Assembly: GCA_004431415.1 (NCBI GenBank)
Contig: QPMI01000665.1
Span: 1-30,401 of the forward strand
Length of the DNA: 30,401 nucleotides
From: Cyanophora paradoxa CCMP329
Taxonomy: Eukaryota > Plantae > Glaucophyta
Direction of reading: 5' to 3'
Positions 1 through 18,355 of this stretch are shown one piece after another; the first letter of the stretch is position 1; every line of letters begins with the position of its first letter. Under the pieces are notes generated by a model. It did not search any database. It worked only from the letters and a program-made list of their open reading frames with translations, and had not been told where the DNA came from. The position numbers and the translations under genes were made by a program.

Positions 1-2
1 GA

Positions 3-956
3 GAAACGGGGCTGCAGGCCGCGAGGGCCAACGGGCTGGAGGCGCTCGAAAAGGTCATCACCGAAATCAACGAGACGGGCCGCTCGGTTTTCATCCTCAA
101 CAAAAAGAACGCCGACGGCAGCACGCGCTACGATATTCGACAGGCGCGCCAGTCGCGGTACTGGGTGCTCTTCAACACGCACAAGAGGCTGGGCGCCGCG
201 AGAGAATTCGAGGTGGAGGCCTTCCGCGGCAGCCTGGCCCAGGTGCTCTCGGACGCCGAATTCTACAAGTTCATTCGATTTAATTTAAAGGAAGAGGACG
301 GCAAGTACAAGGACGATACCTTTGCAAACGCCATCATCGGAATTCGCGTGCAGGGGGGCGTGGAAGTGGGGCCGACCGACGGCTGCTTGCACGCCCACGT
401 GCTCGTCACGATCGACCACATATCGAACCTGCAGGTGCTCTGGGCAAAGTACGATTGGTCGTGGTACTCAAGGAAAAGGAGCCGGGTACGACAACCGTCT
501 ACGAGAGGCTGGGCGAAATTCTGGCCGGCAAATTCGCGGAGGCCGGAAGGAGGCTGGTGGAGCAGCTGCAGCAAGAGGCGGGCAGGACGCGGAGAGAATC
601 CTGCAGAACGCGGAGCTCATCGACGACCTGAACCGAGGGAGAATCGGCATGGGAAAAGACCCGCCCACCATCCTCGCCGAGCTGATTCCGGAGAAAATTA
701 CGGCGGGCGGCTGCAGGAGTACCTCACGAAGACGCTGCCCGAGACGCAGCGGCGCGACCTGCTGAAGCAGTGGTCGCACGCGCGCAACCAGAATAACACC
801 GACAACAACACGGACGGCTACCTCTTCTCCATCTTCCAGACGGAGTCCGCCCCCTCGGACGATCCGCGCTTCGCGCCGCAGGCCGCCGAGATCGGAGGGC
901 TGGGCCGCGGGCGCGGAAAGGGCAAGGGGCGCGGAAGGGGCAGGGGCCGCGGTTAA
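3..956 (+). CDS. HUH-superfamily (Rep-like) endonuclease, 5'-truncated by window, three internal frameshifts
   Basis: Frame is open from position 3. Motif I-like SRYWVLFNT (~150-179), motif II GVEVGPTDGCLHAHVLV (HAH at 390-398), motif III QEYLTK (YxxK at 720-731). The sensible path between II and III switches frames (VVLKEKEPGTTTVYERLGEILAGKF; AERILQNAELIDDLNRG). Ends in a GRGRGKGKGRGRGRGRG tail. Confidence 0.6.
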   Translation, partial: ETGLQAARANGLEALEKVITEINETGRSVFILNKKNADGSTRYDIRQARQSRYWVLFNTHKRLGAAREFEVEAFRGSLAQVLSDAEFYKFIRFNLKEEDGKYKDDTFANAIIGIRVQGGVEVGPTDGCLHAHVLVTIDHISNLQVLWAKYDWSWYSRKRSRVRQPSTRGWAKFWPANSRRPEGGWWSSCSKRRAGRGENPAERGAHRRPEPRENRHGKRPAHHPRRADSGENYGGRLQEYLTKTLPETQRRDLLKQWSHARNQNNTDNNTDGYLFSIFQTESAPSDDPRFAPQAAEIGGLGRGRGKGKGRGRGRGRG

Positions 957-977
957 TTAATCTGACGCGCCCGCAAG

Positions 978-1248
978 ATGTTCCAGGGGGAATGCACCCA
1001 CTCGGACGTCATCACCGTCGTATGCGGCGCGCTCTTCCTGATTTCCGAGCTGCTGGGCGGCACGGAGCGAGTGCGCCCCAACACCGTGCTGGGCGCCCTG
1101 AAGGCGGCGGCCCTTAGGGTCGTGCGCCGCGGGCAGCCCGAGCCCGAGCCCGAGCCCCCGCCCGAGCAGAGGCGCGAGAGCGTCCAGAACATAGGCCCGC
1201 ACCACGTGGACATTCAGATGACGCAGACCGGTACGCGTTTTTTTCTAG
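978..1248 (+). CDS. Small membrane protein (3' end uncertain)
   Basis: Hydrophobic segment VITVVCGALFLISELLG followed by VRPNTVLG and a PEPEPEPP linker; upstream motif at 961. The ORF track runs to 1358, but the next gene's motif and ATG (1244/1261) suggest the real stop is the TAG after the T-run. Confidence 0.5.
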
Positions 1249-1260
1249 AGAACATGGGAA

Positions 1261-1610
1261 ATGGAGACTCCCGCGACACCAGCCCCCAGCGCAGAGGCTC
1301 CAGCGCCCACCAACACCAGCACCAGCAGCAGCACCACGGCCTACCCTTGGCTTCTTAGGACTTACGCGCGAAAGAAGCAGCAGCAGCCGAAGGCACCGGC
1401 GGAAATGGCGGCTGACCTGGATCGGTGCACCCGCCGCGCCATCGCGAGCTACGCCAAGCGGGTCGAGCAGTACCACCCCAGATGGCAGAGGACGCCGGGC
1501 GTAACGCGAAAAACCCCGCCGAGCCCGCCGTGATGGCCGCCGTCATCGACGGCTGCAGTGGGCGCTGCACGAGGAGGAGAGCGCGTCAGAATTTCTTCAT
1601 GCCCAAGTAA
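1261..1610 (+). CDS. Hypothetical viral protein (frameshifted)
   Basis: GGAAATG start 17 nt after TTTTTTTC; ORFs 1261..1533 and 1425..1610 join into one plausible protein ending at the TAA before the next upstream motif. Confidence 0.45.
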
Positions 1611-1629
1611 ATTTCTGAAAGGGCCTTAA

Positions 1630-1821
1630 ACCCGAGAATGATGCCCTGCCGAGCCTCGACAACATCCTCAGCGATTCGCGCTACCTGGGCAGCCTGCTGA
1701 CCTCGGCGCCGTTGCGTACATGTCGCCCGCGCGCTACTACCTGCTGCGGATCCTCCTCGCACAATTCGCGGGCTACTACTTCTGGGCCCACCTCCTGAAC
1801 ATGGGACCGAAGCGGGCTTAA
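1630..1821 (+). CDS. Small hydrophobic protein missed by the ORF track (damaged ATG, one frameshift)
   Basis: After motif ATTTCTGA (TC at 1614), CCTTAAA[tg]CCCGAGAAT gives (M)PENDALPSLDNILSDSRYLGSLLTSA, then shifted AVAYMSPARYYLLRILLAQFAGYYFWAHLLNMGPKRA-stop. Confidence 0.5.
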
Positions 1822-1840
1822 TTTCTCAGCCCCCCCTTAA

Positions 1841-2293
1841 AGTCCTGCGTTAACCTCTACGTCCAGTCGAACGGAGAAACGCAGGATTCCGAGGGCTTCT
1901 GGCGCCTCAGGCTGAACCAGATCCCCTCCGACATCGACACGCTGCAGATCAAGGAGTCTACCTGGAGCTGGACACGACCGCGATTCCGGACCCCACGCCG
2001 CGAAAACCGTAAACGTGCTGCTGATGGACGCGCCCGACTTGAACGTCACGACCATCTCGAACGTGAACTCGTGCATCAACAAAGGTCGTGATCCCGACGT
2101 GGGGCCACGACGGCCTGGAAAACACCATCCTCTACTGGTTCGAGGTGCCATGCCGTGCGCCCCAATTACGGCGTACGACAAATTCCAGGAGCTGCGCGTG
2201 CGCTTCACCGACATCACGGGCGCGACCAAGAAAGAACAACGCCTTCATCGTCAAGAACTTCGGCCTCTGGCCTACGCTAAGTAGGCCGACTAG
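1841..2293 (+). CDS. Putative minor capsid (penton-like single jelly-roll) protein, damaged ATG and frameshifts
   Basis: A[t]G exactly 17 nt after the motif at 1824. Reconstruction: (M)SCVNLYVQSNGETQDSEGFWRLRLNQIPSDIDTLQIKE..YLELDTT..VNVLLMDAPDL..ILYWFEVP..FQELRVRFTDITG..FIVKNFGLW. The pattern of short alternating beta strands (lyvxS..F.l.l..I..lqi; l.vrftD..G) resembles Polinton-like virus/NCLDV pentons. Confidence 0.45.
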
Positions 2294-2313
2294 ATTTTCG
2301 CAGGCCCCCTTAA

Positions 2314-2783
2314 ATGCGCCTGATCATATTCCCGCGAAAGGGCTCGGGCGTCAAGACGCGTACCTTTACGGGCGTGCCTGGCTACCCCTCGCCCCTTGCT
2401 TACAGAGTCGATCTTGTAACCGCCTCTGGTCCAATTAAATACGGGCTGCTGCACAGCCTCAGTCACATCCGTCTCGGCGAGAGCGCATGGCAGGACTTGG
2501 CCTTAATCGTAGAATTCGAGTACAGGGGGGTAGACACGCTAACGGGCGAGCACTTCTACAGGGTACGGGTAGCAAGGGAGGGGTACTCGCTGCGAACGGC
2601 GCGGGCGGGAATACTGGAGCCGAAATACGCGATGCCTCCGAGCCTACCGCTGGCTGCGCGACGAGCAGATCACTATCAGGCCCGATTACCCCTACGCCGA
2701 CGTTTTCTGGCAGGTGCCCGTGGCCGCTGGACAACGGGCGAGGTGAGCGCAAGCTGAAGTGGACGTGGGACGCGGAGCATTAG
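2314..2783 (+). CDS. Hypothetical beta-rich viral protein (frameshifted near 3' end)
   Basis: Motif ATTTTCGCA 16 nt before CTTAAATG; ORF 2314..2757 likely joins the frame ending KLKWTWDAEH-stop (2783), immediately before the next motif. Confidence 0.5.
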
Positions 2784-2808
2784 TTAATTTTTCTCTCTCG
2801 CGGATAAA

Positions 2809-5800
2809 ATGTCGATGCTCGACGACCCCTGGCGCATGGCCATCCCGAATCCGGACGAGGTGCTGAACGGCGCTTCGCGATAGACGGGAGCCTGAGCGTG
2901 AGGGGAATTTACGCGGATGAGATAAGGCTGCGCAAGGGCGCGACCTACAGCGATTTCCTGACGTCCGTCGGTACCTTGGACGATTACGGTGACCTCACCG
3001 CAATTATCAAGGGCTCTGGGGCGTGACGACCGAGACGGGCGTGGACTGGAACATTATTAAGAGGGCGGCCGACGTGAAAATCGCAAACTCCGTCACAGCA
3101 AAAGATGCCACCTGAACCTCGTGAAACTGACTCTAAAGGGCGCAGAGGGAGACGTGAGGCCCGGGTACAACGCACTCGAGCGCATCGCGGGCCCCCTGCG
3201 CCACATCTACTGGAGCGCCAGGCGCTGCCGAGCATGGAGCCCGAGCAGTACAGGCGCGACAGGGAGGAGTTTTTCGCGTGGTTCGACCACTTCAAGGTCA
3301 ACATCCGTGCCTGAGCGCCGACAGGACGGGCGAGACGCCGGAGACGACGGCGGGGGCCGCATCCCAACGGCGCCCGACGTGCTTCCCGATCGCTCCGACT
3401 GGGCGAAAACCCAGAACTGGGCGCTGAAGGACCACTTCCACGACGAGAGGTACGCCCTCGTCAAGCACCCGCACGTGAAGGCCGACATCACGGACTGGGC
3501 GCACCGCCACCTGTACGACGACATCATCGGCGGGCCCAAGTGCCGGGCGCAATTCCTGGTGGGGTACGGGCGGCGGAAGCACGGGAGGTGGGTACAGCAC
3601 CGGGGGTGGGGTACAGGCACCGGAGCGGGGTACAGCACGGGGCGGAGGGGCGCGGGCGGCACGCCAGTGGGCGGGGTGGAGGCAGCAGCAGCTCGGGTGG
3701 CGGCGGATCGGGCGGGACGGCATGGATAAGGTAGCAGGCCTTGCCACTTCAACGGCCATCTTCGGGGGCGCCCTCATCGTAGGCGGCATCAAATACTACA
3801 AGGATCGGAAGGGGTTCGTGAGGCAAATCGACGAGCTGAACGCGAGACCCCCCATTAAATTCGATTCCGAGGACGCGCAGCGCGAGTACTACAAACTCGA
3901 GAACGAAAAGAAGCAATGGAGCGAGCTGAAAGACAAGGAAATGACAGAGGTCGCGGAGAAGAAGGCGGAAGCGAACAAGCTGATGACAGACGCTCAAAGG
4001 CAGGAAGAGAGCGCCCTCACGGCGCTAAGGTCGGCGGAGCGCCAGGTCGCGGAAGAGCGCACGAAAATGATACTCGATGCCGAGGAGGAGCTGAAGAGGC
4101 TAAACGAGCAAAGGGAAGCCGCCAAGGCAAAGAAGCTGCAGGAAATCGAGGCGCTGACTGCCGGCACCGAGCTGCTCGAGGCGCAGAGGAAAGAGATCGA
4201 GGACAGGAAGAAGAAATTGGAAAAGGAGGCAGAGACGAGAAGGCAGCTGCTGGAAGAGGAAGAAGAAACGAGGAGAAAGGCGGGAGAGCTGCAAACGGGG
4301 GCGGTGCAGGAGGCGAACAGGCTCCGGGAGGAGATCAAAAATTTAAAGAGGCGGCCGAGCGGGCGGACGAGCAGTCGAAAAAATTCAAGGCCAACGCGGA
4401 CGAGCTGGCACAGAGGCTGCTCAAGTACGCGCCACGGCAGAGGCTCGCTCGCCCATGGGGACGGCCGAGACGCAGACGACGCCGAGGCCCGATCCGAGGC
4501 CGGCCGCCGAGAGGCTGCCCTTCGCGCGGCTGGGTAGGAGCGACCAGGTGGAAGAGCTCATTGGCCTCACGCTCGAGGATCAGAGGGCCCTCTTCGACGC
4601 GTTAGAGCAGCGGCGCAGGGCGGACGAGGAGGCAGCTGCCAAGACAGAAGAGGAACGACTGAAGGCAATGCAAACTGCATCAGACGAGGAATTTGCACGG
4701 CTGGAGGAGCCGAAGGTAGCGGAGCGTAAGCGACGACTGGAGACGTTCAGGGGGCGCAGATGGATTTTTACCGCTCGGAGCTCAAAAAACTGAAAGAAGG
4801 AAATGCATCGGGGACAGGGTCCGCGCCATGGAAGAGAACATGCGCGACTTTAGCTACGTTATGGATCAGCTGACGGGAAGGGTCAGAAAGACGCCGAAGA
4901 ACTGAGGAGAAAGATGGCCGATGAGAAGTGGAAAAACTTGAGCGTCAGGCTGTTCAGAGGCCCATCAGCGATGCATCTGGATAGCGTACGGCGACGTGGA
5001 GGAGATGCACCGCGAACTGCGGACGGAAGCGAGCCTATGGCGGGGAGCCTCGAATGGTCATTGTACCGGATGCAAAAGGGAAAATTCGCGGCAGAGCTGC
5101 GAGCCAATCCGAAAACGGTGAGCGCGGGCGCACAGAGCGCGTACCTCTCCATGGTCGATTACGTGGGCAAGCTGAGCAAATTTTGGGAAATGCGAAGAGC
5201 CATCATTCCAGCGAGGGCTCGCGCAGTACGATGCCATGGTGCGCGATCTGGAGGCCTTCAAACGTGAGCACCCACCCGCCAAATACAAGATTCACATAGA
5301 TACGACGGCATTCATGGGCGATCTAAGGAAGAGAGGAGACGAGGCCAAGAGTCAGATCGAGGAGCGCTACAGAAAGCCCAAGCGACAAGGAGTACGCAAA
5401 CAGGGTGATTGAAGAGCGCAAACAGCAAGCAAAGGAGAACGCGGCTAGACGCAACGCCGAGATAGAAGAGCAGAGGAAGAAGATTGCGGAGCGCAAGGCG
5501 GCAGAGGAGGAGGCGAGAAAAACCAAGGTAGAAACAGAATACCAAGCATTGAAACGGGAGGCCAGTCAACTATTAAAAAGGAGGGGAAGGGCGTACGCCG
5601 ATGAGGGCGCGGGCGTCGGCTTGGCCAGCCCAGACGACATCACACTCGCGGAGAGGGACGACGTTTCCGTGGAGGAAATGCGCCCGGGCACCGCCCGCCT
5701 GCCCTCCGAGGGCGTGTTTCAGACGCTCGACAGGCGCGTGATGGGCGACTCGGACGTTATTTTGCGCAACGCCCTGATGCCCTACGGCGACTGGAACCGC

Positions 5801-7968
5801 GCCACCGCCGACGCCCTTGCGGATTTCGACCTCGAGCGATTCACCACCAAAGAGCAGCGCGACGCCTACCTGGGCGCCCGAGGGCAAGGCGGCCCGGGTG
5901 GCCAAGGAGCCCTCAGCGCCGAGACGCTCTTCTCGGCGGCGGGTACGGCGAACAACGACGGCATGTCTTTCGGGGCAGCCGATTTATTTCAGGGGGCGGC
6001 ATCGACTTGGTGGCGCCGGGCTCGGGGTACGGGCTCGCGGCCATGCGGCGGGCGGCGCGCGGCGGCGGGCCTTGGGCTGGCGACGGCCGGCGGCCTGCTC
6101 TCGGCCTACCAGGCGCTCTCGCAGGGCAAGATAGGGAGGCGGAGTTCTTCGATACGTTCCGCGATCAGATGATCATGACGGTCGGCTCCTTTGGCCTGCA
6201 GACGGGCATGTCGTCCGCCCTGAGCGCCCTCACGAAAATGAGGATCGGCACGGTGGCGGACTTGGCCTGTCCATCCTCGCGGGCGCCATCGCGCAGGTGA
6301 TCGTGGATATCATCAACGGGCGCAGCGCGGAAGAGATCGTGAAGAACTTCTTCAAGTACCCCGTCGACTGGCGGCCGACACCATCCAGTTCATTGCGCAA
6401 TTATCGCAGCAGATCTACGACTGGGGCGTCGAGACGTGGGCGACGAGGCGAGCCAGCTGCGCAACCGAATTAATCGGCTGGAGGGCGAGCTGGGCTCCGG
6501 ATTTGTGGGGTGTACGACCCTCGGAGGCGCGCGAAATGGCCTCTCTCTTGGCCCAGGAGCTGCGGTTAAACGAAATTAAGGAGCCGAAGGAGCTGCAGGC
6601 GTTCATTCGCGCGCTCGACAACAGCATCAACGATTACCGTACCCCAAGGACCAGAAGACCCTGCTCGAAATCGATCGCGCGACCGTGCTCTTCCTCTCCA
6701 GCTCACCGTTAAAATGCAGGAGGGCTTCGGTCGACTTCGCTCGCCCTGAGTCGACTTATGCGCGACCTGAAGCAGATGATAAAGGAGGAGACCAAGGGCG
6801 GAAGCGCGTCTTAATTGCCGTCTACCAGGAGGGCCTCAACAGGATCAATCACATCGAAGCCCTAAGGCGCGAATTCGGCTCGGCCATCCGTCACTCGGCG
6901 TCTCGTCGAACGGAGGGGCGCAGGTGGCCCGCCTGGCCGACGCCAACTCGCGCCTCGAGATTCCCGGTACCTTCCGCATGCAGGATTGGTGGGAGGCCGA
7001 GGCCTTCAGGAATTACGGGGCCTTCATAGACAACGGGATCAATTCCCAGAGCCCCAAGGCAAACTGGCTGGTACCCAAGGCCTACGTCGATAAATTGATG
7101 GACAGGCCCGCGGCACCCTACAGCAAAAAGATCGCCAAGGGCATCGAGTACTGGGCGCCCGAGCCTAACCAGCCCGTCTTTGCGTCGCAGAACTACGAGT
7201 GGCACATGGCGCCGGGGGCGAGTCAGGCCGTCAGCACCGTGGGCGTTGCCGTACCGCAGCTGGCGGCCGTGGCGCATACAGGAGAGTACCAAGATCTAAA
7301 AGGGAGGCCGACGATACCGACAATTCCAGCAACTTGGGCGTGGGATAACATCACGGGGAAGCCGAGCACGTACCCCCACGCAGACCACCAGCACACCCTC
7401 TCCCAGATCAGCGACTGGGAGGCCCCGGATTTGTCAAACATCACTGTGGACTGGGAAACGCAAGTTACGGGCAGGCCAGCCACCTTTCCCCCCTCGACTC
7501 ACAGTCACAACGTGGACTGGGAGACTCAAGTTACGGGGAAGCCTCTCACCTTCCCCCCCTCTACGCACAGTCACACAGAGTACTCGCTCACCGGCCACGG
7601 GCACAGAAACGTGAACATGGACGCTTACATTCAACACGGCACTTTCTTTCACACGTACTCCGCGAACACGGCTTTCGATCTCAACACAACATACATTGTC
7701 ACGTTCAACATGAGTTTCCCGGAAGCGTACGACGCAGGTGGTGGCTTGTTACCTGTATGGCCCCAGCCAGGGGGAACCACCGCCAAACGTAACAGTTACC
7801 CCATCCATAAAACTTGGAGTGGATGTCGACATGACAGTGAACGTCTACGACGTCACCTACACCGGATTTGTCGTCAGAGTGAGGTTCAGGCCCACGATGT
7901 CAGAAACGATCATCGAATCTAAACGGCTCACGATCTACTGGATGGCAGCGGGCAAGCTGCTTATGTAA
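2809..7968 (+). CDS. Giant (~1,700 aa) structural protein: TM segment, long coiled coil, tape-measure-like Gly/Ala region, fibre repeats and C-terminal fibre-tip domain; many frameshifts
   Basis: Starts ATAAAATG 17 nt after the motif; no other intergenic motif was seen until 7976. Overlapping + ORFs (3121, 3722, 4455, 4914, 5405, 6007, 6503, 6685, 6924, 7738) chain continuously. Contains LATSTAIFGGALIVGGI, E/K/R heptads, GLGLATAGGLLSAYQALSQG, YQDLKGRPTIP, WDNITGKPSTYPHADHQH, and IQHG..VTFNMSFP..TGF..IYWMAAG. Confidence 0.6.
7446..7577 (+). repeat. 66-bp coding tandem duplication (fibre repeat VDWETQVTGxPxTFPPSTHSH)
   Basis: Two copies starting at 7446 and 7512, differing mostly at synonymous positions. 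Confidence 0.9.
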
Positions 7969-7992
7969 TCGATTTTCTGATGCAATCCAAAA

Positions 7993-8813
7993 ATGTCAGT
8001 TGCTGTTCCTTTGTTCACCTACGCTGCCAGCGTGAATCACAAGGGCGATCACACGATTAAGGAGACCACCTCGGAAACCAGGCCACCGAGGCCCCTACAA
8101 CGCCACGGCCGTCCCTTCTCCGAGGCCGATCTCGTGCGAGTCGGCGAGCTGCGCTGCGATAAGATGCGCACGCGGAGGGCGGATCGGCCGTGCCGGGCGC
8201 GTGAAGACGCAGAGGCTCACCGTCACGAACGGCTCCTGGGACGGGAGTGGTCACACCACAAACGCCCTGACCTTTAACGGTACTGCCGACGGGGAGGGAA
8301 TGCGGCGCTCTACGTGCAGGGGGGAGGGGCGGACGTGGTGGGCGGGCTGCGGGTCAACGGGGCCGCAACAATTACGGGCTACCTGAAGCACCCAAAGCCG
8401 GCTTTCTGCGTGGGCCTGAAAACAACGTTTGTAACACCAGCGGAAAAGGGGGTCATCAAACCATGGGGGTGGGCGTGGATCAACACGGGAGGCTTCAATA
8501 CGACGGAGGGCACATTCACGGCACCCGTGAGCGGGGTGTACAAATTTACGCTGTCGGCAACCAGTGCTGTCGCAGGGGCCCTTTCCGTCACGCTGCGGAG
8601 AAACGGATCGGAAGGCGTGGATGGTGCGAAACCCTGGGCGTACACAAGCGAATCCGGCGATAACCGCAACCTTGCATTTACGTTCATGTGCACTCTGGCA
8701 CAAGATCAGTACATCGATCTTTACTCCTGGAGTGGTCAGTACCTGGGCGAGGATTGAGTGTCACACCCAGTGGCTTCACCATATTCACTGGCGAGCTTGT
8801 TTACATGACGTGA
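7993..8813 (+). CDS. Fibre/spike protein with C-terminal C1q (TNF-like) domain, frameshifted
   Basis: PAFCVG..WINTGGFNTTEGTFTAPVSGVYKFTLS..LRRNG..LAQDQYIDL..(shift) SGFTIFTGELV matches the gC1q consensus; N-terminal half stitched from ORFs 7993, 8201 and 8314; motif at 7976. Confidence 0.75.
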
Positions 8814-8831
8814 GTCTTGGTGTAGAACGAC

Positions 8832-10858
8832 TCAGAGGCCGTACTTGGCCTTAAGGTGCGTCATCAGGCTGCTGATGTCGCCCGCGGAGCCGGAGCGCCC
8901 GACAATGATGATCTCAGCGACAAAGGCGTTGAGGTACCCGCCCCAGACACCAATGTTCCTCCAATGAAGCCGGATGTGCGGGCCTGTGCAAGGGCAACCG
9001 TAGAGGGTCCCGTACCTCCACGCGCCCGGATCGCGGTAGCGCCCCGCCTGCAGCGAAGACCAGAACGTACGCGACGTGTCCGTGAACTGGCATATGAAGA
9101 CGCTGTAGGAGATGTCGATGTCGTCTGGGGCGTGGTCGTGTACGCACTGTACGTCGTGGAATTCGGGCTGACGCCTGTGACGATCCGACCCGGGTCGTTC
9201 AGGTCGTGCATCGCGTAAATGATGCCGGATACGTCCGATACCACGCCGATGTTCCAGTAGTTCGTGTGATCTACGCTGCTTATGGCCTTCACTACCAACG
9301 CGACCAGGAACCCATTCGGGTAAGCAACGTTGTTGAACCGCGACAGGTGCGCCGAAAAGTCTAGCCACTGGCTGGAAGCCGACGTGAAGCGCAGCGCCGG
9401 CTTGCCGTTGCTGGCGTTCGCGACGAAGGTAGGGCGGTTTGCCGGCGTCGACTGCGTTGCGGACTCTGCGGTGTTCGCGAGGTTCTGCCAGCTGCTGACC
9501 GCTGCGCCGTCTGCAAGCGAGAGGGACGAGGCGTCGAAGTGCTGCACCAGATCTGTACCGAACTGAGCGGCAACGGAGAAGAGGGTGACGCTGCTGCTTC
9601 CCGAGGAGGGGCCCTCCTCGCCCACCTGGTTGACGCCCTTGACGGTGTAAGTGTACGTGGCCCCGTAGACGGCCGTCGCGTCCGAGTAGGGGCTGGCGCT
9701 GGCGTTCGCGAGGAAGGCGCCGCCCCTGTAGATGTTGTAGGAGACGGTGACGCCCGTCGCCGGCGCGGACCACGCGAGCACCACGGGCAGCAGCTGGGGC
9801 GCCCCTTCCGTCGGGGTCGCGGTGAGCCCCGCGGGCGCCGCCGGGTCCGTGGTGACGTAGACGGCCACGCTTGTGAGCCCCTCCCCGCCCAAGTTCGTCG
9901 CGGAGATCTGGTACTCGTACCCCGTACCCCAGACCGTGGTCGCGTCGCTGTAGGAGTTGGTTGCGGAGTCTGTAAGGTAGGCCCCATCCCTGTAGATCTT
10001 GTACCCCGTCGCCCCCGTGGGCGCCGTCCACGCTAAGCTGACGGGCTGCTGCTGATCGTCGGGTGCAGTCGCCGTCACGTTCGTGGGTGCCGCCGGCTTC
10101 GTCCAAACAACGAGGGGATCGGACTTTTCGTATTCGACCCCGCCCACGATGCCAGCCACCTGGTAGGAGTACTCCGTGCCCCATGCGAGGGCAGTGCTAT
10201 CGTCAATGTACGAGGTAGATAGTCCGCTGCTCGCAAATCCGATGGGGGTACCATCCCTGTAAATGCGAATCGAGTCCGCGCCCTCCATGGCCACCCAGTT
10301 GATTGTGACAACAAAGGTGGGCTTCGGGAAGCCTGCAGACGCGGGGCCGCCCCCTGCGATAAAATCGCCGTAGCTCTGGGCCGTGGCGGTCGTGAGCGTG
10401 GTGTACGCCTCGATCTGCGGGCTGAAGCCGCCTATGCCTTGGAAGAGAATGTAATTGCTCATAGTGCCCTCATGCGTGTAGAGAAGCGACTGTGCGTAGG
10501 TGGTGGGCGGGGCTTTGCCGTGAGAGCCCGTGCTGCTGCTGCCCTGCTCGCGCACCGCCGCCACGCGGTAGAGCCGCAGAGCCCCGAAACTAAAGGGCGA
10601 GTCCGTGTAGGTGACGGTTGGCGCATTCACCGTGGCCACGAGATCCCAGGGGCCGTTGATGCTGGTCGCCCTGTACACCTTGTACTTGACGGCGTTGGCG
10701 ACGGCGACCCAGTTCAGTTGAAATCCGTAGGTGCCGCCCCCGTTATTGAGCACGGAGCCCGATCGGACCTGGGGCCTGCTCACAGTGAGCGAGATCGGTT
10801 CCACGCCGTACTGCGGCGCCTGCACCACCTGCTTCTTCACAAATACGAAGCGGGGCAT
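8832..10858 (-). CDS. Four fibronectin type III repeats plus C-terminal LamG/concanavalin-like domain
   Basis: FN3 signatures (LAWTAPTGATGYKIYRDG..YSD..YEYQISATN; PAAPxxLTAT) occur four times, then HFDASSL..VSSWQNLA..PTFVANASNGKPALRF and, after frameshifts at ~8930-9120, YLNAFVAEIIIV..HLKAKYGL-stop. Confidence 0.85.
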
Positions 10859-10897
10859 TTTCCTCTACGATCCGAAAAAATATCTGCGCCGGGGTAA
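10859..10897. promoter_or_regulatory. Bidirectional instance of the element's conserved upstream motif
   Basis: 39-bp spacer between divergent ATGs: TCCGA-AAAAATA-TCTGC gives TCGGA 17 nt before ATG 10858 (-) and TCTGC 15 nt before ATG 10898 (+), sharing one A/T run. Confidence 0.65.
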
Positions 10898-11575
10898 ATG
10901 ACTTCCAACTGGTACCAGACCCTCAACTCCCTGGACGTTGGTGACAACACCAAGGATTTTGCGCGCATCCCCTCCGGTAGTTACGTCGACGTCTTTCTGC
11001 AAAATCCCGTCGTGATTCAGGCCGTTCAGAACGCCTACGCCACGCCCAAGATTTACTCCTACCAGCTCTTCTTCGACCCTTTGAGCCTCAGCGCAGAGGT
11101 AATCGAGCTGCTGCACGAATCCGGCCTCGTGAAAAAGGTCGCGCCTGCCACGGCCACGGCCAACGTCCTGCGCTGTCTCGAGGTAAAGTTCAGGGAGACG
11201 GGGTACGGCCCCACCGTGAACCAGTACACCGACAACAGTCTACCGGGTACGGGTGCGTACACGGCGCGGGGTACGCTCAAGGGCGACGTGCTCTTCACAA
11301 AATTCAATCCAAGTCCCGCCACCCTGGGGGCCCTCTACACGGGCGGCAACCCGCGCGAATCGAATCTGCCCCGCTTCCCCTTCACCTTTTTCAAGTTCCA
11401 GGTCTTCCCCCTCCCCTACGCCGCAGACCAGCCCCACTTCAGCACGGGTGCCAGCCTCTGCGCAGAGCTGCGCGAGTGCTCGATTTCCTACAGGCACACC
11501 ACGGGCTCCGACGCGGTGCAGCCCGCGGCCCGCATCTCGGGCATCGGCAACGACATCGCCCTCCTCTACGGATAA
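10898..11575 (+). CDS. Beta-rich protein, paralogue A (candidate capsid/tube protein)
   Basis: Intact 225-aa ORF; aligns by eye with 11599..12384 over most of its length. Confidence 0.75.
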   Translation: MTSNWYQTLNSLDVGDNTKDFARIPSGSYVDVFLQNPVVIQAVQNAYATPKIYSYQLFFDPLSLSAEVIELLHESGLVKKVAPATATANVLRCLEVKFRETGYGPTVNQYTDNSLPGTGAYTARGTLKGDVLFTKFNPSPATLGALYTGGNPRESNLPRFPFTFFKFQVFPLPYAADQPHFSTGASLCAELRECSISYRHTTGSDAVQPAARISGIGNDIALLYG

Positions 11576-11598
11576 TCTTTCTCATTTGAGGTCGCAAA

Positions 11599-12384
11599 AT
11601 GCCTGCTACTTCGAACACCATCGTCAAGACCGTGCTGCCCACCCCCGATTTCTTCGGCGACGCCACGAACGCGGCCAACGCTGGGACGGATTCCGTGGTC
11701 TGGGACGGCAACTACGCCTCCATGCTGACCGTGAAAATCCAGAATCCAGTCATGCTGCGCATCACCTCCAACGACTTTGAGAATCCCGCCTCCTGCTCCG
11801 TGTACGTGTACTTTGACATCGACTCGGGAGTGAGCGCGGACGAGGCCGAGGCCCTCTGGCTTTCCGGCCTCCTTAAAAAGATAGAGCCCTCCGTACCCGA
11901 TCGGCCCGCGATTCGCGTGCTCGAGCTCAAGTTCACTGCGAACACCGCCCTCACCCGCACCTTTAATGGCGGCTCCAAGACTCACATTGACGGCGCTGCC
12001 ATCGATAGCACGCGCAAAACTACACAGGCCGTCCCCTTCGAGATGTACAACCTCTGGAAGATGACCGCAAAGGAGATGATGACGAATGCCACCACGGGCG
12101 GAGTCTCGGGTACCTCGTTTTCCTACGATTCCTCGAATCCCCGTACCCAGGTCTGGCCCCGGCTCCTCTTCACGAAATTCACTTTCAAATTGTACAACAA
12201 CATTGCGGGTATGCCTACCTCTGGAATGGTCGTGGGCTCTACCCTCATGGCCGAGCTGATAGAAGCTGAGGCAGACTACACAACTGCCACAACCAACCCT
12301 GCAAACGGCACGGCTACAAACTACGTATCCTGGGCCACAATAGGCCGCGAGTACGACACTAAGATTCACACCACTAGCGTCTAG
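11599..12384 (+). CDS. Beta-rich protein, paralogue B (candidate capsid/tube protein)
   Basis: Intact 261-aa ORF, GCAAAATG start, motif at 11580; shares QNPV, FD, SGLxKK, LExKF, NPR..PR..FT.F.F and G..L.AEL.E....Y with paralogue A. Confidence 0.75.
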   Translation: MPATSNTIVKTVLPTPDFFGDATNAANAGTDSVVWDGNYASMLTVKIQNPVMLRITSNDFENPASCSVYVYFDIDSGVSADEAEALWLSGLLKKIEPSVPDRPAIRVLELKFTANTALTRTFNGGSKTHIDGAAIDSTRKTTQAVPFEMYNLWKMTAKEMMTNATTGGVSGTSFSYDSSNPRTQVWPRLLFTKFTFKLYNNIAGMPTSGMVVGSTLMAELIEAEADYTTATTNPANGTATNYVSWATIGREYDTKIHTTSV

Positions 12385-12739
12385 ACTGGCTAAGCTGCAT
12401 TAGCGCCTGTGCCGCCTCCATCATCTCCGCAATCTCTTCGCTCTTCTCCCGCAGGCTTGTACCCTCCCTCTTCTTCTTCTGGATCTCCGACATCGATACC
12501 CAGCGCAGGTTCTCCCTCCTGTAGTCCAGCGGGTTGCCGTTGATGTGCTCCACGTACAGTCCACGTGGCGGCTTCCCGAGGATGAGCTGGGAGAGGTAGT
12601 GCTTGCGCCTCCCGAAAGTCTTGGTCACCCTGCCCCTGTCCAGTCGCCAGGGAAACTCCATCGCACTCCGGGGTACGTCCGAGTTGACCAGGACGTTGTA
12701 GGGCAGGTCGCGGGAGTCGGTGCACTTGAGCAGGGCCAT
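12374..12739 (-). CDS. HNH endonuclease-like protein, degenerate
   Basis: LSQLILGKPPRGLYVEHINGNPLDYRRENLRWVSMSEI versus phage HNH consensus MHRLI..VDHINGNxLDNRRxNLRxxTxxEN; motif at 12756, 17 nt before ATG. Confidence 0.75.
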   Translation of the reverse strand: MALLKCTDSRDLPYNVLVNSDVPRSAMEFPWRLDRGRVTKTFGRRKHYLSQLILGKPPRGLYVEHINGNPLDYRRENLRWVSMSEIQKKKREGTSLREKSEEIAEMMEAAQALMQLSQSRR

Positions 12740-12778
12740 TTTGCCCTAGGTTCAGAAAATGTTCGACCGGGGACCTTG

Positions 12779-13256
12779 GACCTTGGTGCTCGGACCTTGG
12801 TGCTTGGTGCTTGGTGCTTGGTGCTTTGGAAGCGTTTCTCTCAGGACCCGGGCCCAGACTTTCTCCAGGATCGGAAATTTGTCAGACAAGTCAGGTGAGT
12901 TTTTCTACGGACTTTTTTACTCGTAGTCTTTTTTAGTCGTACCACCCCTCATACTCTTTTTTACTCGTAGTCTTTTTTACTCTTACGACTTCTCGTACCC
13001 TCTGTCTCTTGACATCTCGCTTGAAATCGCTCTCGAAAACTCTGTCGACATTTCAGACTCTACCTCTCTCGAAATCTCACCTGGAATGTCACCGGAAACG
13101 TCGTATGCAAAATGCAGTACCCCTTTCTAAGTCTGCCCGATGGTTAATGACTTGGCGCGGCAAACTCTCAGATCCAGAGAAAGTCTGGGCCCAGACTCTG
13201 AGAGTAACGCTTCCAAAGCACCAAGCACCAAGCCCCAAGGTCCGAGCACCAAGGTC
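12779..13256. repeat. ~110-bp imperfect inverted repeat (12779-12893 / 13148-13256) with CTTGGTG heptamers and T-rich spacer repeats
   Basis: The arms are reverse complements (GACCTTGGTGCTCGGACCTTGG..GCTTTGGAAGCGTT.CTCTCAG..GGGCCCAGACTTTCTC..CAAGTCA); the spacer has TTTTTTACTCGTAGTC-type repeats at ~12912-12986. Confidence 0.9.
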
Positions 13257-13314
13257 AAGTAAAAATAGTCGGCCAATTTTTACAAGTATGTACAATGGAA
13301 TGACGCAATACTAT

Positions 13315-14337
13315 TTACAGCATCTCAAAGTCAGAGTCATCGCCATCGGAAACCAACTCAATGAGGCCCTCGGGCGCCGACTTAAGGGGAATGCGGGGAA
13401 GGGCCTGCGCTGCCTGCACTAAGTCCTGCCGCTCCTGCTCGCGCTGCGCCGCCAAGGCCGCTGCCGCCTCTGCCTCGCGCTGCCGCTGAGCCTCAATGCG
13501 CGCCTTGAGCTCGGCTGCCTCCTTCTGCTTGCGCTCGGCAATCTTGGCCAGCGTCATCTCGCGACGAAGAAGGCGCTCGTGACGCAGCTTGCGCCGCAGC
13601 TCGGCCATTTCGCGCTTGGCGATGATGCGCTTCTCAATGGTCTTGACGTGCTGAGTCAGGCGCTCGGTGTAGTGTGACGTCACACGAGAACGGGCAATGC
13701 CAGCGCCGAGCTTCAAGTCCTTGGCGTTTTCCTTGGCGGGGTCCTTGACGCGCTCGGAGTTGTCGGTGAATGACGTAGTCTCCATGAACTTCTTCTTGAC
13801 GATTGACTTGGTCTTGATAATGCGGCGCTTGCGAGTCGGGTTTTCGTTGTCGCCTTCAGAGTCAGAAGACGACTCAGAGTCGTATGGGATCGGCACGTCA
13901 AAGTCGATGAAGTCGTTGATGTCAGACTCGACGTCAGAGGCCTCGGACTTGGCGTCTTCAGTGGGCTGAGGGGCAGATGACGACGATGACGGAGGGGGGT
14001 AATTCGTGAAGACTTGAGGGGGATAGGCCCAGGCGAGCGTCTCGGCGGCAGACTCGGCGAAAAGCTTGGGGTCGCCCCAGCCAGTGGGAGTCTTGACCCA
14101 GCCGGGGACGGGGGGCACGTCGACGGGGGGCTCGGGCTTGGGTTGCTTGGACTTGGGCAGAAGGGCGGGTACAAAGTTGAGGTTGATGGTGCGGACATTA
14201 CCGTCGCTGTAAGCTTGGTAGCAGTACCCCAGATTGCGGGCACGCTTCTCCATTTCACGGGTAGGCCAATCGCGGGACTTAGTCCACATCTCGCGGGCCT
14301 TGGCAAGGTCCTCAACAAGCTCAGAGGGAAGCGACAT
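13315..14337 (-). CDS. Hypothetical nuclear/regulatory protein (acidic tract, basic NLS-like motif, coiled coil)
   Basis: Intact 340-aa ORF from MSLPSELVE; SDVESDINDFIDFD, DSESSSDSEGDNE, PTRKRRIIKTK, long charged helix, C-terminal LIELVSDGDDSD. Confidence 0.7.
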   Translation of the reverse strand: MSLPSELVEDLAKAREMWTKSRDWPTREMEKRARNLGYCYQAYSDGNVRTINLNFVPALLPKSKQPKPEPPVDVPPVPGWVKTPTGWGDPKLFAESAAETLAWAYPPQVFTNYPPPSSSSSAPQPTEDAKSEASDVESDINDFIDFDVPIPYDSESSSDSEGDNENPTRKRRIIKTKSIVKKKFMETTSFTDNSERVKDPAKENAKDLKLGAGIARSRVTSHYTERLTQHVKTIEKRIIAKREMAELRRKLRHERLLRREMTLAKIAERKQKEAAELKARIEAQRQREAEAAAALAAQREQERQDLVQAAQALPRIPLKSAPEGLIELVSDGDDSDFEML

Positions 14338-15105
14338 CTGCGCAAAGGGAAAAGAGTTCAGCAAAGGCAAAACGTGAGGTGACTGAGAGAGCGGACTTGT
14401 GAAAATTCGGAGAGGCAGGGTTTCCTTGGGCTGAGAGAAGGCGGCGAACCCGTTTCAAGAGTGAGGCAAAGTGGGCCGCCAGATGCCAGGCGTACGCGGA
14501 GTGGGAGAAGGCGTGCGGGATCACGAAGGTCATGAAAGAACGTCGCGCCAAGGCGAAGCGCACTGAGGCGCGCGGGCGCGAGGCCGACGCGCCGCCTGAC
14601 GATACGGCTGGCAACGCTCGCAGGAAGCGCGCGGATCCGGAGCCCCGGCAGCGGGAACGCTGCAGGGAGTGCGGTGCCCTCGAGTCCCGCCACCAAGGCG
14701 GGGAAACCCTAGCCCTCTCACACCTGAGCTGCCCGCCAGACGACTACGGCTGGGTCCGGCTTCAGCGGCCATGCAAGTATACGACCATACGAACAGGTAT
14801 GCTTGGGGCGTGGGCACACAGAGGGCGCGCCCGCGCTAGAGGGAGACACTGGGGGATTGCGGTCTGGGGGCGGGGCCGGAGGACGCAACACCAACAAATG
14901 GAGGCGGCGGAGGCGACGGCAGGAGGCGGCCAGTAGCCCAATCTACTGGGGCTGGCGAGGAGCCTGGCACACGCGCGGCGAGGCCCTTGGGCAGCGCTGG
15001 CGGCGGACATACCATGATTGGGAGTCTTTTGTAGAGATAGGACCTCGTAGCCGGGAGTTTAGGTTGGTTTAGAAATCGATACAGCTAGCTTCCACATCAT
15101 TAGTA

Positions 15106-15246
15106 TTAGTTAGAAACCTCCTTAGCTAGATATCTAGACACGAAACCTTCAAACCTTTCGTTCATTTTGTACTTTCTAAAGCACAGCATACGACGGTCCT
15201 CGATAGTATCTAGTCGGAGAGATTTATTGGGCGATGTGAAACTCAT
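15106..15246 (-). CDS. Small hypothetical protein (46 aa)
   Basis: ACAATG start, MSFTSPNKSLRLDTIEDRR..; lies downstream of a 17-mer also found upstream of the 14337 gene. Confidence 0.3.
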   Translation of the reverse strand: MSFTSPNKSLRLDTIEDRRMLCFRKYKMNERFEGFVSRYLAKEVSN

Positions 15247-15360
15247 TGTAGTTGTGTTGTGTGCTAATGCAAGAGATTTTAATTCAAGAGTGAGGCAAAA
15301 TGGCGGCGGACCGCGGTTTTGTTGCCGATTTTTTTCGCGGTCTAGTTCGCAACGGAAAAC

Positions 15361-15533
15361 GTTGCCAACTGGCCTGAAAAAAGCCAAATTTGGCCTTTTC
15401 TTACGTTTCTCCCCCCTTCCTTCGCTGCAAACTGGACCTAAAAAAATGTTGGGCCGAAGGAAATCTCACGGAAAAAGTCCCTTCTCCCCCCTGTTTTGCT
15501 GCAAACTGGACCGCAAAAAAGTTGGACCGAAGC
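15361..15533. repeat. Imperfect ~40-50 bp direct repeats (GCAAACTGGACC..AAAAAA..TTGG.CCGAAG)
   Basis: Two close copies at ~15421-15460 and ~15494-15533, plus a weaker one at ~15361-15395. Confidence 0.7.
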
Positions 15534-15565
15534 CCCCCTACCCCGCTGAGTCAACCTGGCGGAAA

Positions 15566-16117
15566 TCACTCGAGTGCGTCCTCCGAAGGTCGAGTCTCGG
15601 GGTTGGGTGTACCCCCGTCCAGAAACTCATCTGAGGTCCACAGATTTTTCCCCAGCCGTGTCAGGTATGCCAAAACGGCCGCCTTATCTGGAAGATAATT
15701 CTCAGTCAGCAGCCGTTGAAAGGCGTTACGAAATCGCATGACAACCTCATCTGGATTCATATCCTTTATGAACGCCATGAACTGCGAATTTTTTGCAAGC
15801 TCCTCCGCTGCAACGGTGTCCGTATTGGGGAATGCTATTGGATACGGGAAATATCCTCGTGGAACCCCAGCAAGGTTGCTGCCTTGTGTCGACTTCACTA
15901 GAAGAGGTGCGGCGTAGCCAGTCATGGATTGCTTCACGCCGAGCCCGTTGTGGCTGAAATCGTACCGTTGGCGGGCCAGGCTTCCTGTGAGCTCTTGCTC
16001 CATGCGCCCAATAAATGAGCGATCGTATGCTGCGCGCTTTCGATCGTATGAGGCTTCGACATTATCGCGTGTTGTGTCGACTATCCTCTTCCGACGGTCC
16101 ACTGTCCAACTGGTCAT
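15566..16117 (-). CDS. Hypothetical viral protein (183 aa)
   Basis: True start likely CTCAAATG at 16117 (MTSWTVDRRKR..), with AATTTTCGGA 22 nt upstream; the upstream extension in the ORF track only translates repeats. Confidence 0.65.
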   Translation of the reverse strand: MTSWTVDRRKRIVDTTRDNVEASYDRKRAAYDRSFIGRMEQELTGSLARQRYDFSHNGLGVKQSMTGYAAPLLVKSTQGSNLAGVPRGYFPYPIAFPNTDTVAAEELAKNSQFMAFIKDMNPDEVVMRFRNAFQRLLTENYLPDKAAVLAYLTRLGKNLWTSDEFLDGGTPNPETRPSEDALE

Positions 16118-16159
16118 TTGAGCTTTCCCCTCCCTCCGAAAATTTCCCCGCTTTTGAGT

Positions 16160-16227
16160 CCAGACTCTGATTTTAACTCTTCCCAAGTCCCAAGCACCAA
16201 GCACCAAGCACCAAGGTCCTAGGTCCC
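16160..16227. repeat. Third, partial copy of the inverted-repeat arm (CACCAAG heptamers)
   Basis: CCAGACTCTGA..TAAC.CTTCC.AAG..CCAAGCACCAAGCACCAAGCACCAAGGTCC matches 13191-13256 in the same orientation. Confidence 0.85.
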
Positions 16228-16354
16228 ATTTTTCTCCCATTTTGACTCGAGATTCTGTCCAAGTCCAAATCCGGCCCCGGGATTCGAACCCTCGTTTTGG
16301 GTCGATTTCACGCGTGAAAACAGCACTTTTCGGCCTTTTCCGATTTTTCCTTTC

Positions 16355-16462
16355 TCGCGATCGCATTAATGCCCCCGATCTCGAAATCGCGATCGAAAAG
16401 GGTCGCGATCGGGAGAAAGTCGCGATCACCAGGGTCGCGATCGGCTCGTGATCGCCGCGATC
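16355..16462. repeat. TCGCGATC motif array, ~16-bp spacing
   Basis: Exact copies at 16355, 16387, 16403, 16420 and 16435; variants at 16446 and 16455. Confidence 0.85.
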
Positions 16463-16714
16463 GCCAGCCTCGGAGGGGGTACCCCCACAGCTGTTGCGGC
16501 GGTTATAAGAACCTCCGCAATCCAAGCGTCACTTCCGAGTCTCGAGCTCTCGGAGTTGACTTTTCGCGTTTGGCCCATTGATGGCCCTCATATATATATA
16601 CGCATAATCTCACGACAATGTCCAGAATTCACTACAGATAGCTAGCTATAAAGCGGGCCGCGAAGGCAAAGTAAATACATTCGGGCATTCCAGAAGCTGG
16701 TACTATTACTCTGA

Positions 16715-17595
16715 TATAAGCCGGTGAGCCGGGGCCGCCGGGGGCGACACAGAATTCGAAGAATCGCCTCGAGGGAGTGAGAGGGGCACCTGAGAATGAT
16801 GGGCCCGCGGAACCACGCCCGTCCTCCCCAGGGCGGGCCCCGCGCCTGCATCCGAGCCCTGCGAAATAACATCTATTACATTGGGATTCAGTTTATATAA
16901 GGTGAGCCGGGGACGCCGGGCACGACACAGAAGAATCGCCTCGAGGGAGTGAGGGGGCACCTGAGAATGATGGCCCGCGGAACCACGCCCGGCCTCCCCA
17001 GGGCGGGCCCCGCGCCTGCATCCGAGCCCTGAGAACCAACATCGATTACATTGGGATTCAGTTTATATAAGGTGAGCCGGGGCCGCCGGGCGCGACACAG
17101 AAGAATCGCCTCGAGGGAGTGAGGGGGTCATCAGAGAATGATGGGCCCGCGGAACCACGCCCGGCCTCCCCAGGGCGGGCCCCGCGCCTGCATCCGAGCC
17201 CTGAGAACCAACATCGATTACATTGGGATTCAGTTTATATAAGGTGAGCCGGGGCCGCCGGGGGCGACACAGAAGAATCGCCTCGAGGGAGTGAGGGGGG
17301 CACCTGAGAATGATGGGCCCGCGGAACCACGCCCGGCCTCCCCAGGGCGGGCCCCGCGCCTGCATCCGAGCCCTGAGAACCAACATCGATTACATTGGGA
17401 TTCAGTTTATATAAGGTGAGCCGGGGCCGCCGGGCGCGACACAGAAGAATCGCCTCGAGGGAGTGAGGGGGTCATCAGAGAATGATGGGCCGGGCCCGAG
17501 GAACCACGCCCGGCCCGGCCTCCCCAGGGCGGGCCCCGCGCCTGCATCCAAGCCCTGAGAAACAACATGTGGTATACATGGATTCAGAATCTATA
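16715..17595. repeat. Tandem satellite, five units of ~172 bp
   Basis: GGTGAGCCGG recurs at 16723, 16901, 17071, 17243 and 17415; inner units near-identical, outer units diverged. Confidence 0.95.
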
Positions 17596-18355
17596 AGATG
17601 CGGGGGTGCCCGGGCCCTAGTGGGATGGCAAGAGCGAGACCAGGGCACCATGTGCCATCCACAGAAGTTTCTTTTCGAACTGAATATCTTTGGATAGAAT
17701 TGAGCTCTATTACATCAGAGTACATCATAAGAACGACAATGAAAAGAACTTTCAGGATATATAAAAAGGTCGGGACTCGCAAAGTAATCTAACCTGTAAG
17801 AGCCCGCCAAAACGTCTGACGAGCTCTCAAGCCTGACATCATGGCATCTTGATCATGACCTCATCCAACTCTGTCATCATGAAAACTGACCTCGCCGAGT
17901 CGGTGAGTGACTCCATTCCCAGTCAACAACAGCATGTGTGTTGCATCATATAAAGGCTTAAACAAGCCTCATATGTCACTCATTAACAGGGCATCGCTTG
18001 TTGGAACGAGATTTCGGAAATTATTACGGCCAGGTGCCGCCTAGAGCTAGCTATAGTGCACGTGCCCCGGGCCCTGGGCCCCCACGGCCATGCCGCCGCG
18101 GCGCACTCGTACTATGCCCCGCTGCCGTGCCCCCACGTGCCTCACTATATATGCCCCGGCGCCGCGATCGCGACCGCCGTGCCGCCACGTAACCCGCCTC
18201 GCTGTGGCGTGCCCTCATGATCACGTGCACATATATATGCATGTCCCCTACACATGTCGTAAATGACGCCATGTGTCAATGCGAGACAAAGCAAATTTGG
18301 AGCTACTAGGCTAGTCAAAATCACATCAAAATCTCTGCACACATTGAGCGGGGGA

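Follow-up and report, generated by a model that had tools for sequence, protein, structure and literature searches.

Mriyaviruses have been proposed as the closest small relatives of the giant viruses; replication as a rolling circle has been predicted for them from sequence, and Yaravirus is the sole isolate (PMC11253617; bioRxiv 10.64898/2026.06.19.733378). Among them, the gamadviruses (proposed 'Gamadviridae', Mriyaviricetes) carry adjacent HUH and HUH_long genes and a predicted T7 gp2.5-like single-stranded DNA-binding protein (SSB), which in gamadvirus PEV_26 was reported to match the structure 1je5 (PMC11253617). Their genomes have 35-45 kb and code for an A32 ATPase and for a double jelly-roll major capsid protein like that of nucleocytoplasmic large DNA viruses. 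Mriyaviruses are without integration genes, but relatives of 20-30 kb, i.e. of the size of Polinton-like viruses (PLVs), combine HUH with rve: in Zoravirus (VC102) and VC218, HUH occurs in about half and 28% and rve in 57% and 62%, respectively, and the genomes have terminal repeats (bioRxiv 10.64898/2026.06.19.733378). Cyanophora and the glaucophytes are absent from the main text of that study. Here we describe a related element in a contig of the glaucophyte Cyanophora paradoxa CCMP329 (QPMI01000665.1, positions 1 to 30,401; this whole stretch of 30,401 nucleotides is called the window).

Positions 1 to about 16,590 of the window are the right-hand part of an intron-free, multi-copy endogenous virus. 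The reading that we prefer, with a probability of about 0.68, is that of an integrating, mriyavirus-related double-stranded DNA (dsDNA) virus of Polinton-like size, which would replicate as a rolling circle by means of a tandem HUH/HUH_long pair with the assistance of two predicted T7-type SSBs. It would be a new variant of the mriyavirus/Zoravirus-like group, gamadvirus-like in its replication and distinct from gamadviruses in the size of HUH_long, in the neighbouring genes and in integration. A sequence-only reading of this DNA had seen in it an endogenous DNA virus of a eukaryote that pairs an HUH initiator with phage-style fibre genes, and this is borne out by a single organism code among the sequencing runs, by copies on dozens of host contigs and by an internal host insertion. 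An alga that grows in culture would thus contain a gamadvirus-type replication set (HUH, HUH_long and a T7-like SSB) dozens of times over, in copies that look intact, and nicking, origin use, excision and virion formation become directly testable. Moreover, a glaucophyte host and an integrating lifestyle would be added to the continuum of PLVs, mriyaviruses and nucleocytoplasmic large DNA viruses (NCLDVs).

Gene content and the HUH pair

Read with an X at each frame switch, positions 1-16,590 contain 13 genes. The compactness seen earlier is retained, whereas the count of about 15 is lowered since the open reading frame (ORF) at 14532-14936 sits in an 829-bp insertion. The coding fraction of 1-12,800 is 0.98, and the codon model supports one frame nearly throughout, with frequent frame switches (about 50 frame breaks in our reading of the window). 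The GC content is 0.61 in the element vs 0.72 right of 17.8 kb, and GC-rich GT..CAG intron candidates number 1 and 22 (some overlapping), respectively. The shared upstream motif, first chosen by eye, also holds: TAAT-N14-34-A[AG]ATG has 5 matches in 1-12,800 against 0.73 expected, a number reached in 0 of 200 Markov simulations. It precedes four genes (978, twice; 2809; 7993; 11599), i.e. it is exact in 4 of about 11 gene starts. The features are as follows.

1-956, +: HUH_long endonuclease, C-terminal ~318 amino acids (aa), with motif II, a helical insert, the YxxK motif III and a GR-rich tail
978-1260, +: small protein with a hydrophobic N-terminal segment, from codon score and TAAT motif; end uncertain
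1260-1821, +: frameshifted gene with a hydrophobic C-terminus (YMSP...H..N), possibly a Mriya_48/DUF5767-like envelope protein; start uncertain
1833-2284, +: candidate single jelly-roll minor capsid protein (mCP; penton), frameshifted; motifs seen by eye
2314-2785, +: ~155-aa protein, frameshifted, from the codon model; no family in Pfam or PHROGs
2809-7968, +: giant ~1,700-aa protein, likely a virion structural or fibre protein
7993-8757, +: C1q-domain fibre or adhesin (Pfam C1q, E 6e-7); C-terminal part a low-copy variant
8832-10858, -: protein of FN3 repeats, its C-terminal beta domain resembling LamG by eye; Pfam gives fn3 at E 6e-5 and RGI_lyase at E 2e-9
10898-11575, +: SSB-1, 225 aa, intact; predicted OB fold, T7 gp2.5-like (AlphaFold2 pLDDT 45.6)
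11599-12384, +: SSB-2, 261 aa, intact; predicted OB fold, gp2.5/Enc34-like (AlphaFold2 pLDDT 35)
12374-12739, -: HNH_3 endonuclease, 121 aa (Pfam E 2.8e-8; also PHROGs)
12765-13256: control region without coding sequence, in which inverted blocks of AAGCACC repeats flank a T-rich spacer (77-nt arms, 84% complementary)
13315-14337, -: 340-aa protein with an acidic stretch and a coiled coil; no family in Pfam or PHROGs
14454-15299: 829-bp host insertion, non-viral, with an exact 17-nt flanking duplication (at 14454 and 15283)
15566-16117, -: 183-aa protein, low-copy variant (contig depth about equal to flank); no family
16155-16590: right terminal region with the third AAGCACC block and five TCGCGATC repeats, ending in ...CA before (TA)5; candidate origin and attachment end
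16723-17568: tandem array of a 172-bp unit (4.8 copies, 93% matches), beyond the proposed end; either a host satellite or sub-terminal flank

The HUH initiator is confirmed, i.e. motifs II (LHAHV) and III (YxxK) are kept in five long proteins. Judged by sequence, the gene appears to be a gamadvirus-type HUH_long with a short partner, in a clade of its own. It begins left of the window and has three frame breaks in the visible part, which is 99% identical over 151 aa to a 658-aa protein (P0043); in other copies the length is 658-676 aa, giving a full protein of ~660 aa. The short HUH lies left of the window as well, and the tandem is read from other copies, where a 236-aa short HUH is found directly upstream (P0076 has the gene number before the HUH_long P0085). 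Four further models (P0081, P0052, P0056 and P0058) fuse the short HUH with HUH_long.

Among 1.84 billion representatives, a profile search found 17 matches, including three long relatives (P0054, P0055 and P0059) and six short HUHs. Common to the long HUHs are two CxxC motifs as well as LHxH and YxxK, which are separated by an insert. We note that the environmental long protein P0059 and the short P0062 lie on Logan contigs of identical length (4,240 bp), probably one contig of a free relative with the same tandem. In IMG/VR, 16 loci from 15 records (L001-L016) share only the HUHs with the window; the loci that were checked have genes of the gamadvirus type (in L007, Pfam identifies VLTF3 and DUF5767), and the window HUH matched 24 HUH ORFs of L001-L015 with phmmer E values of 4e-10 to 2e-4. 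Four of these loci (L003, L004, L005 and L011) have a short HUH without an adjoining HUH_long. No close relatives of HUH, of SSB-2, of both SSBs or of the long protein P0060 were found in IMG/VR, where one HUH pattern gave 0 matches. The JGI metagenomes yielded no relatives of HUH_long or SSB-2, prokaryote genomes yielded no relatives, and HUH_long had no match in 50,697 phage records.

When 33 HUH domains were placed in a tree, the long proteins of Cyanophora grouped with the three long ones from the environment (99/98), separate from the long proteins of the gamadviruses (100/99). Long joins long and short joins short, with a support of 72/60 for all rows and 97/90 without the long outliers P0060 and P0064. 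Holding the Cyanophora HUH pair together gave a p value of 0.044 in the approximately unbiased (AU) test, i.e. an independent duplication is weakly rejected. The support is moderate because long branches meet in this tree.

In summary, the element is like the gamadviruses in having adjacent HUH and HUH_long genes, with motifs II and III in both and an insert in the long one. It is unlike them in that its HUH_long has about 660 aa, with a CxxC...CxxC N-terminal part, vs 1,600-2,100 aa, and forms a separate clade; there are two SSB paralogues, and the neighbours are different. The Zoravirus/VC218 group likewise has HUH, though this comparison is by description and not with a Zoravirus HUH sequence, and it has Mriya48, for which the window holds an unconfirmed candidate; a tandem HUH/HUH_long or an SSB pair is not mentioned for this group in the portions of the source available.

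The predicted SSB pair

The short paralogous pair of beta proteins noticed in the sequence did prove to be paralogous (30% identity, E 1e-17), and it has environmental relatives at 60-62% identity. The structural models predict that the two are T7 gp2.5-like ssDNA-binding proteins. For SSB-1 the top match in VIA was 1je5 (T7 gp2.5; Z 3.8, rmsd 6.6, 121 aligned), which was also the top match in the Foldseek search of the PDB (E 0.16). For SSB-2 the first match in VIA was 4klk (DUF2815; Z 7.0, rmsd 3.8, 118 aligned), and the list included 1je5 (Z 6.5, rmsd 3.8, 115 aligned), 5odk (Enc34 SSB; Z 6.1, rmsd 3.9, 112 aligned) and CP312R of African swine fever virus (Z 5.1, rmsd 4.5, 134 aligned), most other rows being OB-fold proteins. 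Four of the top six BFVD rows for SSB-2 were named phage ssDNA-binding proteins (probability 0.89-1.0, E 3e-3 to 9e-3), and the Atlas gave weak leads only (0.82 for unnamed phage clusters, 0.78 for Bbp16). Of the five fold searches made with the two paralogues, four had an SSB fold in first place. The predicted resemblance to 1je5 is shared with the gamadviruses, with low-confidence models on the Cyanophora side and no gamadvirus SSB sequence in the comparison.

A role of the pair as capsid or penton proteins was considered and dropped, as there was no profile match to the penton candidate or to the gamadvirus mCP and the fold searches gave OB folds. The VIA searches of SSB-1 and SSB-2 listed no jelly-roll capsid, which does not exclude one.

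Copies in the alga and the right end

Protein searches found near-identical genes in conserved order on at least 28-38 named C. paradoxa contigs; by our count the HUH genes are on 28 and the SSB genes on at least 38. Both are seen on 13 contigs, in 12 of them within 11 gene numbers, and the giant gene lies between them where listed. The sequencing runs that contain 8,800-17,800, in whole or in part, all have one organism code (20 out of 20), and no RNA run is on record among them.

These copies bear on the possibility that the contig is a chimera of a free virus or phage and host DNA, which we regard as extremely improbable. Like tailed phages, the element has tail repeats and Ig/FN3, C1q-like, HNH and gp2.5-like domains, and no contig spans the junction, for which the sequence-only reading had wanted spanning long reads. 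Unlike them, it is multi-copy in a eukaryotic genome and gave no capsid, portal, terminase or tape-measure match. A chimera is further opposed by the dozens of copies on separate host contigs, the single organism code, the internal host insertion, the joining of the element's end to other flanks elsewhere and the lack of HUH_long matches in the phage records.

In four DNA runs the depth of the HUH contigs exceeded that of the contig at 17,754-18,353 by a factor of 6-13. The contig depth at 8,540-8,919, within the C1q/FN3 gene region, was 1.2-2.1 times that of the same flank, and at 15,585-16,160 it was about equal to it; by the caveat of the tool used, contig depth is not a copy number. These differences suggest that the copies have their core in common, whereas the C1q/FN3 tips and the 183-aa gene belong to particular copies.

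The short-read contigs showed one-base indels at all 12 listed places (113 more are unlisted), most of them at or near frame breaks. The frame breaks thus appear to be mostly assembly errors, and the family therefore likely includes intact members. As the short-read contigs may stem from other copies, it is the family that is in frame and not necessarily the window copy. Other copies give full-length gene models, in which false introns span the breaks. A capsid-less HUH transposon or a decayed viral relic, with structural genes that no longer work, would account for the frame breaks, for the host insertion inside and for the missing major capsid protein (MCP). Nevertheless, we consider it very improbable, given the indels restored at the listed places, the full-length models, the adhesin tips that vary while the core is conserved, and the environmental relatives of SSB-2 at 60% identity.

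Four further runs were only guessed to be RNA ("RNA-guess" runs). In these, most core genes had little or no cover, and they provide no evidence on expression. In three of the four, contigs with a depth of 226-540 covered 1669-2309, i.e. the penton candidate and the end of the preceding gene, with the neighbouring genes almost uncovered. These contigs are 90-96% alike to the window and so belong to another copy; the cover could be read-through or a domesticated copy, and the runs were not chosen for the penton candidate.

The right end of the element was first placed at 16500 and is here moved to near CA/TATATA at 16,590, as the window reads ...CA at 16,589-16,590, followed by (TA)5. In three of the four RNA-guess runs contigs match 16,181-16,597 and then enter other sequence, with two different flanks; TA runs follow the element end at three loci (the window and the two flanks). 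The stretch 16,181-16,590 is assigned to the virus because its AAGCACC block also occurs twice inside the element; the block pattern AAGCACCAAG has 9 matches against 0.05 expected. A joint 12851/16171 on opposite strands is put down to cross-matching between the AAGCACC blocks and not to an inversion. The five TCGCGATC repeats, at 16,355-16,442, lie inside a self-folding stretch (DNA fold z -4.0, 0 of 200 shuffles) and are possibly the replication origin. After the second AAGCACC block there is also a 44-codon ORF (13291-13422, +), which may be a small gene; it lies partly antisense to the 340-aa gene, overlapping its end.

The inserted 829-bp piece (14,454-15,282) is skipped by a joint from 14453 to 15283 in one of four DNA runs and in three of four RNA-guess runs. 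In RNA-guess contigs it has other flanks at 15272-15280 and a GT..AG skip at 14672-14739. Because of its 17-nt duplication, its absence from other copies and its other flanks elsewhere, it is likely an active, SINE-like host retroposon.

The preferred reading suggests the following course. An rve-type integrase encoded left of the window would insert the genome at TA-rich sites; it is postulated because of the CA end and the species-wide rve counts given below. A terminal CA is used by rve integrases. On reactivation the HUH pair would nick an origin, for which the block of TCGCGATC repeats close to the end is a candidate, a host polymerase would extend, and the SSBs would coat the displaced strand. 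Packaging of the DNA would fall to a double jelly-roll MCP and an A32 ATPase, both likewise placed left of the window, and the penton candidate would bear exchangeable fibres that bind the cell, namely the C1q protein, the FN3 protein and the tail-repeat tip of the giant protein. The adhesin tips do vary between copies; their fibre role is presumed.

Mriyaviruses lack integration genes, and the Cyanophora element is integrated in many copies with the integrase itself unseen. One may ask whether the HUH pair itself integrates the virus in the manner of a Helitron or Replitron, one HUH replicating and the other transferring the strand into TA runs. Two HUHs with intact motifs, the absence of an integrase from the visible 16.6 kb and the TA runs at three loci speak for this. 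The terminal CA of rve usage, the rve found in 85 of 156 C. paradoxa PLVs, the gamadviruses that keep the same pair without reported integration, and the position of the left part outside the window speak against it, and we hold it to be quite unlikely. We are just as doubtful of a further proposal, that of a third, integrating mriyavirus-like lineage, sister to the gamadviruses, whose HUH pair both starts replication and inserts into TA runs without an integrase; if true, a virus related to the giant viruses and able to form capsids would move in the manner of a Helitron.

Structural genes, affiliation and flank

The giant protein has an N-terminal domain, a Gly linker, a hydrophobic helix, long coiled coils and another hydrophobic block; phage-tail repeats follow at 7446-7575, and the beta-rich tip differs between copies (P0109). 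Its start was earlier put at 3722 and is moved to 2809, since in four other copies (P0103, P0105, P0109 and P0110) one model runs from the 2809 sequence into the tail repeats and no TAAT motif precedes 3722. The phage-tail-repeat stretch matches PHROGs at E 1.5e-9, and PTR-bearing homologues exist. The label "tape-measure-like" is no more than a resemblance, as none of 13 Cyanophora models matches Pfam at E 0.01 and there is no tape-measure match in PHROGs. As regards the three adhesin modules proposed, C1q and fn3 are supported by Pfam, while the LamG module has no Pfam match; the FN3-repeat protein, whose distal part is low-copy, also matches an Ig-like tail family of PHROGs (E 2e-20). C1q-type fibres are shared with the gamadviruses (locus L001, a weak match with E 0.025). 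The small protein at 978-1260 has no family match, and PDB sequence searches gave nothing meaningful.

The protein at 1833-2284 has motifs that resemble the penton pattern and is kept as a candidate only. The term "penton-like" cannot be upheld beyond these motifs seen by eye, i.e. there was no Pfam, PHROGs, PDB or Atlas match and the profile tests were non-significant. The penton and Mriya_48 candidates do align on the expected C-terminal motifs, without significance.

The gene content that the sequence-only reading found lacking (pPolB, integrase, packaging ATPase and a recognisable double jelly-roll MCP) was lacking in the Pfam and PHROGs scans of the window as well. In the visible part, these scans gave no pPolB, cysteine protease or rve, which may lie to the left, and together with the family hidden Markov models (HMMs) described below no VLTF2, VLTF3, RuvC, PDDEXK or helicase. 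Among 24 pieces, no PHROGs match to capsid, portal, terminase or tape-measure families was found.

In C. paradoxa itself, 366 MCP hits in two groups (272 and 94) have been published, and the best HHpred matches of the six MCPs listed are NCLDV MCPs (92-98%), which holds for many PLVs (PMC10120064). Another survey contains 156 C. paradoxa PLVs, of which, by our count of the columns, 139 have the A32 ATPase (PF04665), 85 rve, 49 pPolB, 40 HNH_3 and 40 a D5-type domain (PMC12220804 Table S6). One of them has a PTR-PTR-H_lectin fibre protein, and phage-type fibres are widespread in PLVs (PMC12220804). Other Cyanophora elements are treated in PMC8502044. The window element shares with these PLVs the host species, HNH_3 (40 of 156) and the fibre type, as the giant-gene tip fits the PTR-PTR-H_lectin pattern by eye, although Pfam called neither domain in the window copy. 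HUH is unmentioned in the main texts of PMC10120064 and PMC12220804. The HUH/SSB family is probably among the published C. paradoxa PLVs, a link that we infer. We found no paper describing HUH in Cyanophora viruses; journal coverage was partial, and supplements may already classify the MCPs.

Several observations weigh against the preferred reading. No link has been made between the HUH/SSB family and the published C. paradoxa MCPs, and none of the six MCP contigs is among the listed contigs of the family. No MCP, ATPase, integrase or helicase is seen in the visible 16.6 kb, the element continuing left of the window. The 23 family HMMs built from the gamadvirus-like loci L001-L015, from which the HUH family was left out by length, found no window gene at E <0.004 among 267 targets. 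In particular, the visible part has no significant match to VLTF2, VLTF3, Mriya_48/50/51 or mCP, unlike the gamadviruses: the gene at 1260-1821 reached E 0.41 with the Mriya_48 HMM and 0.22 with hhalign on the C-terminal motif, with 2 of 20 shuffles as high; Mriya_50 and Mriya_51 gave no signal in window genes; and the penton candidate was non-significant against the gamadvirus mCP profile, again with 2 of 20 shuffles as high. The joins of the HUH tree involve long branches, the AU value is marginal, and HUH_long has 611-724 aa in the Cyanophora/environmental clade vs 1,591-2,114 aa in gamadvirus-like loci. Both SSB models are of low confidence, Z values up to 7 are within the range that VIA calls common, no fold search for the SSBs gave E <0.001, and the BFVD search with SSB-1 was mixed. 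Neither protein has an acidic C-terminal tail, as carried by gp2.5. Finally, no contig spans 16.0-17.8 kb, and the terminus is drawn from RNA-guess contigs only, whose match is confined to 16181-16597 and contains 13 substitutions and 26 gaps.

A PLV of the usual kind (pPolB or primase-helicase, with rve) that acquired the HUH pair and the SSBs as a swapped-in module, with capsid genes unrelated to mriyaviruses, would explain part of this. Replication modules often switch among PLVs, pPolB and D5-type domains are present in C. paradoxa PLVs in the numbers given above, only the HUHs match gamadvirus-like loci, and the fibre repertoire is typical of PLVs. On the other hand, the HUH pair and the T7-type SSB together mirror the gamadviruses, and the six listed MCPs best match those of NCLDVs, though this is true of many PLVs. 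We consider such an origin unlikely and retain the mriyavirus-related virus.

The statement that the element fits none of the known groups cleanly goes too far, as gamadvirus-type HUH_long with a short partner, the predicted T7-SSB fold as in PEV_26 and HUH/rve relatives of mriyaviruses of PLV size are all known. The claim of a possible new lineage is partly right: the HUH_long clade is separate from the gamadviruses and 0 of 23 families match other genes, whereas the HUH pair and the SSB type are known.

As to the flank, a low-copy contig starts at 17754 in four of four DNA runs, and an 80-bp GC-rich satellite (16.6 copies) occupies 18,357-19,665. The description of the element as abutting intron-rich host DNA agrees with the intron candidates (22 vs 1), except that repeats intervene and the first clear host gene is near 21 kb. 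This gene (~20954-22950, +) has short GC-rich introns and the exon motifs CVSIHVR, DK..E and VDVVALA, which we presume to recall GT23/FUT8-type fucosyltransferases; Pfam on unspliced frames gave nothing. Further to the right there is a 375-bp tandem duplication at 98% (27199-27915), and in the ORF list a GC-rich stretch of ~350 bp is present twice (24815-25180 and 28630-28970).

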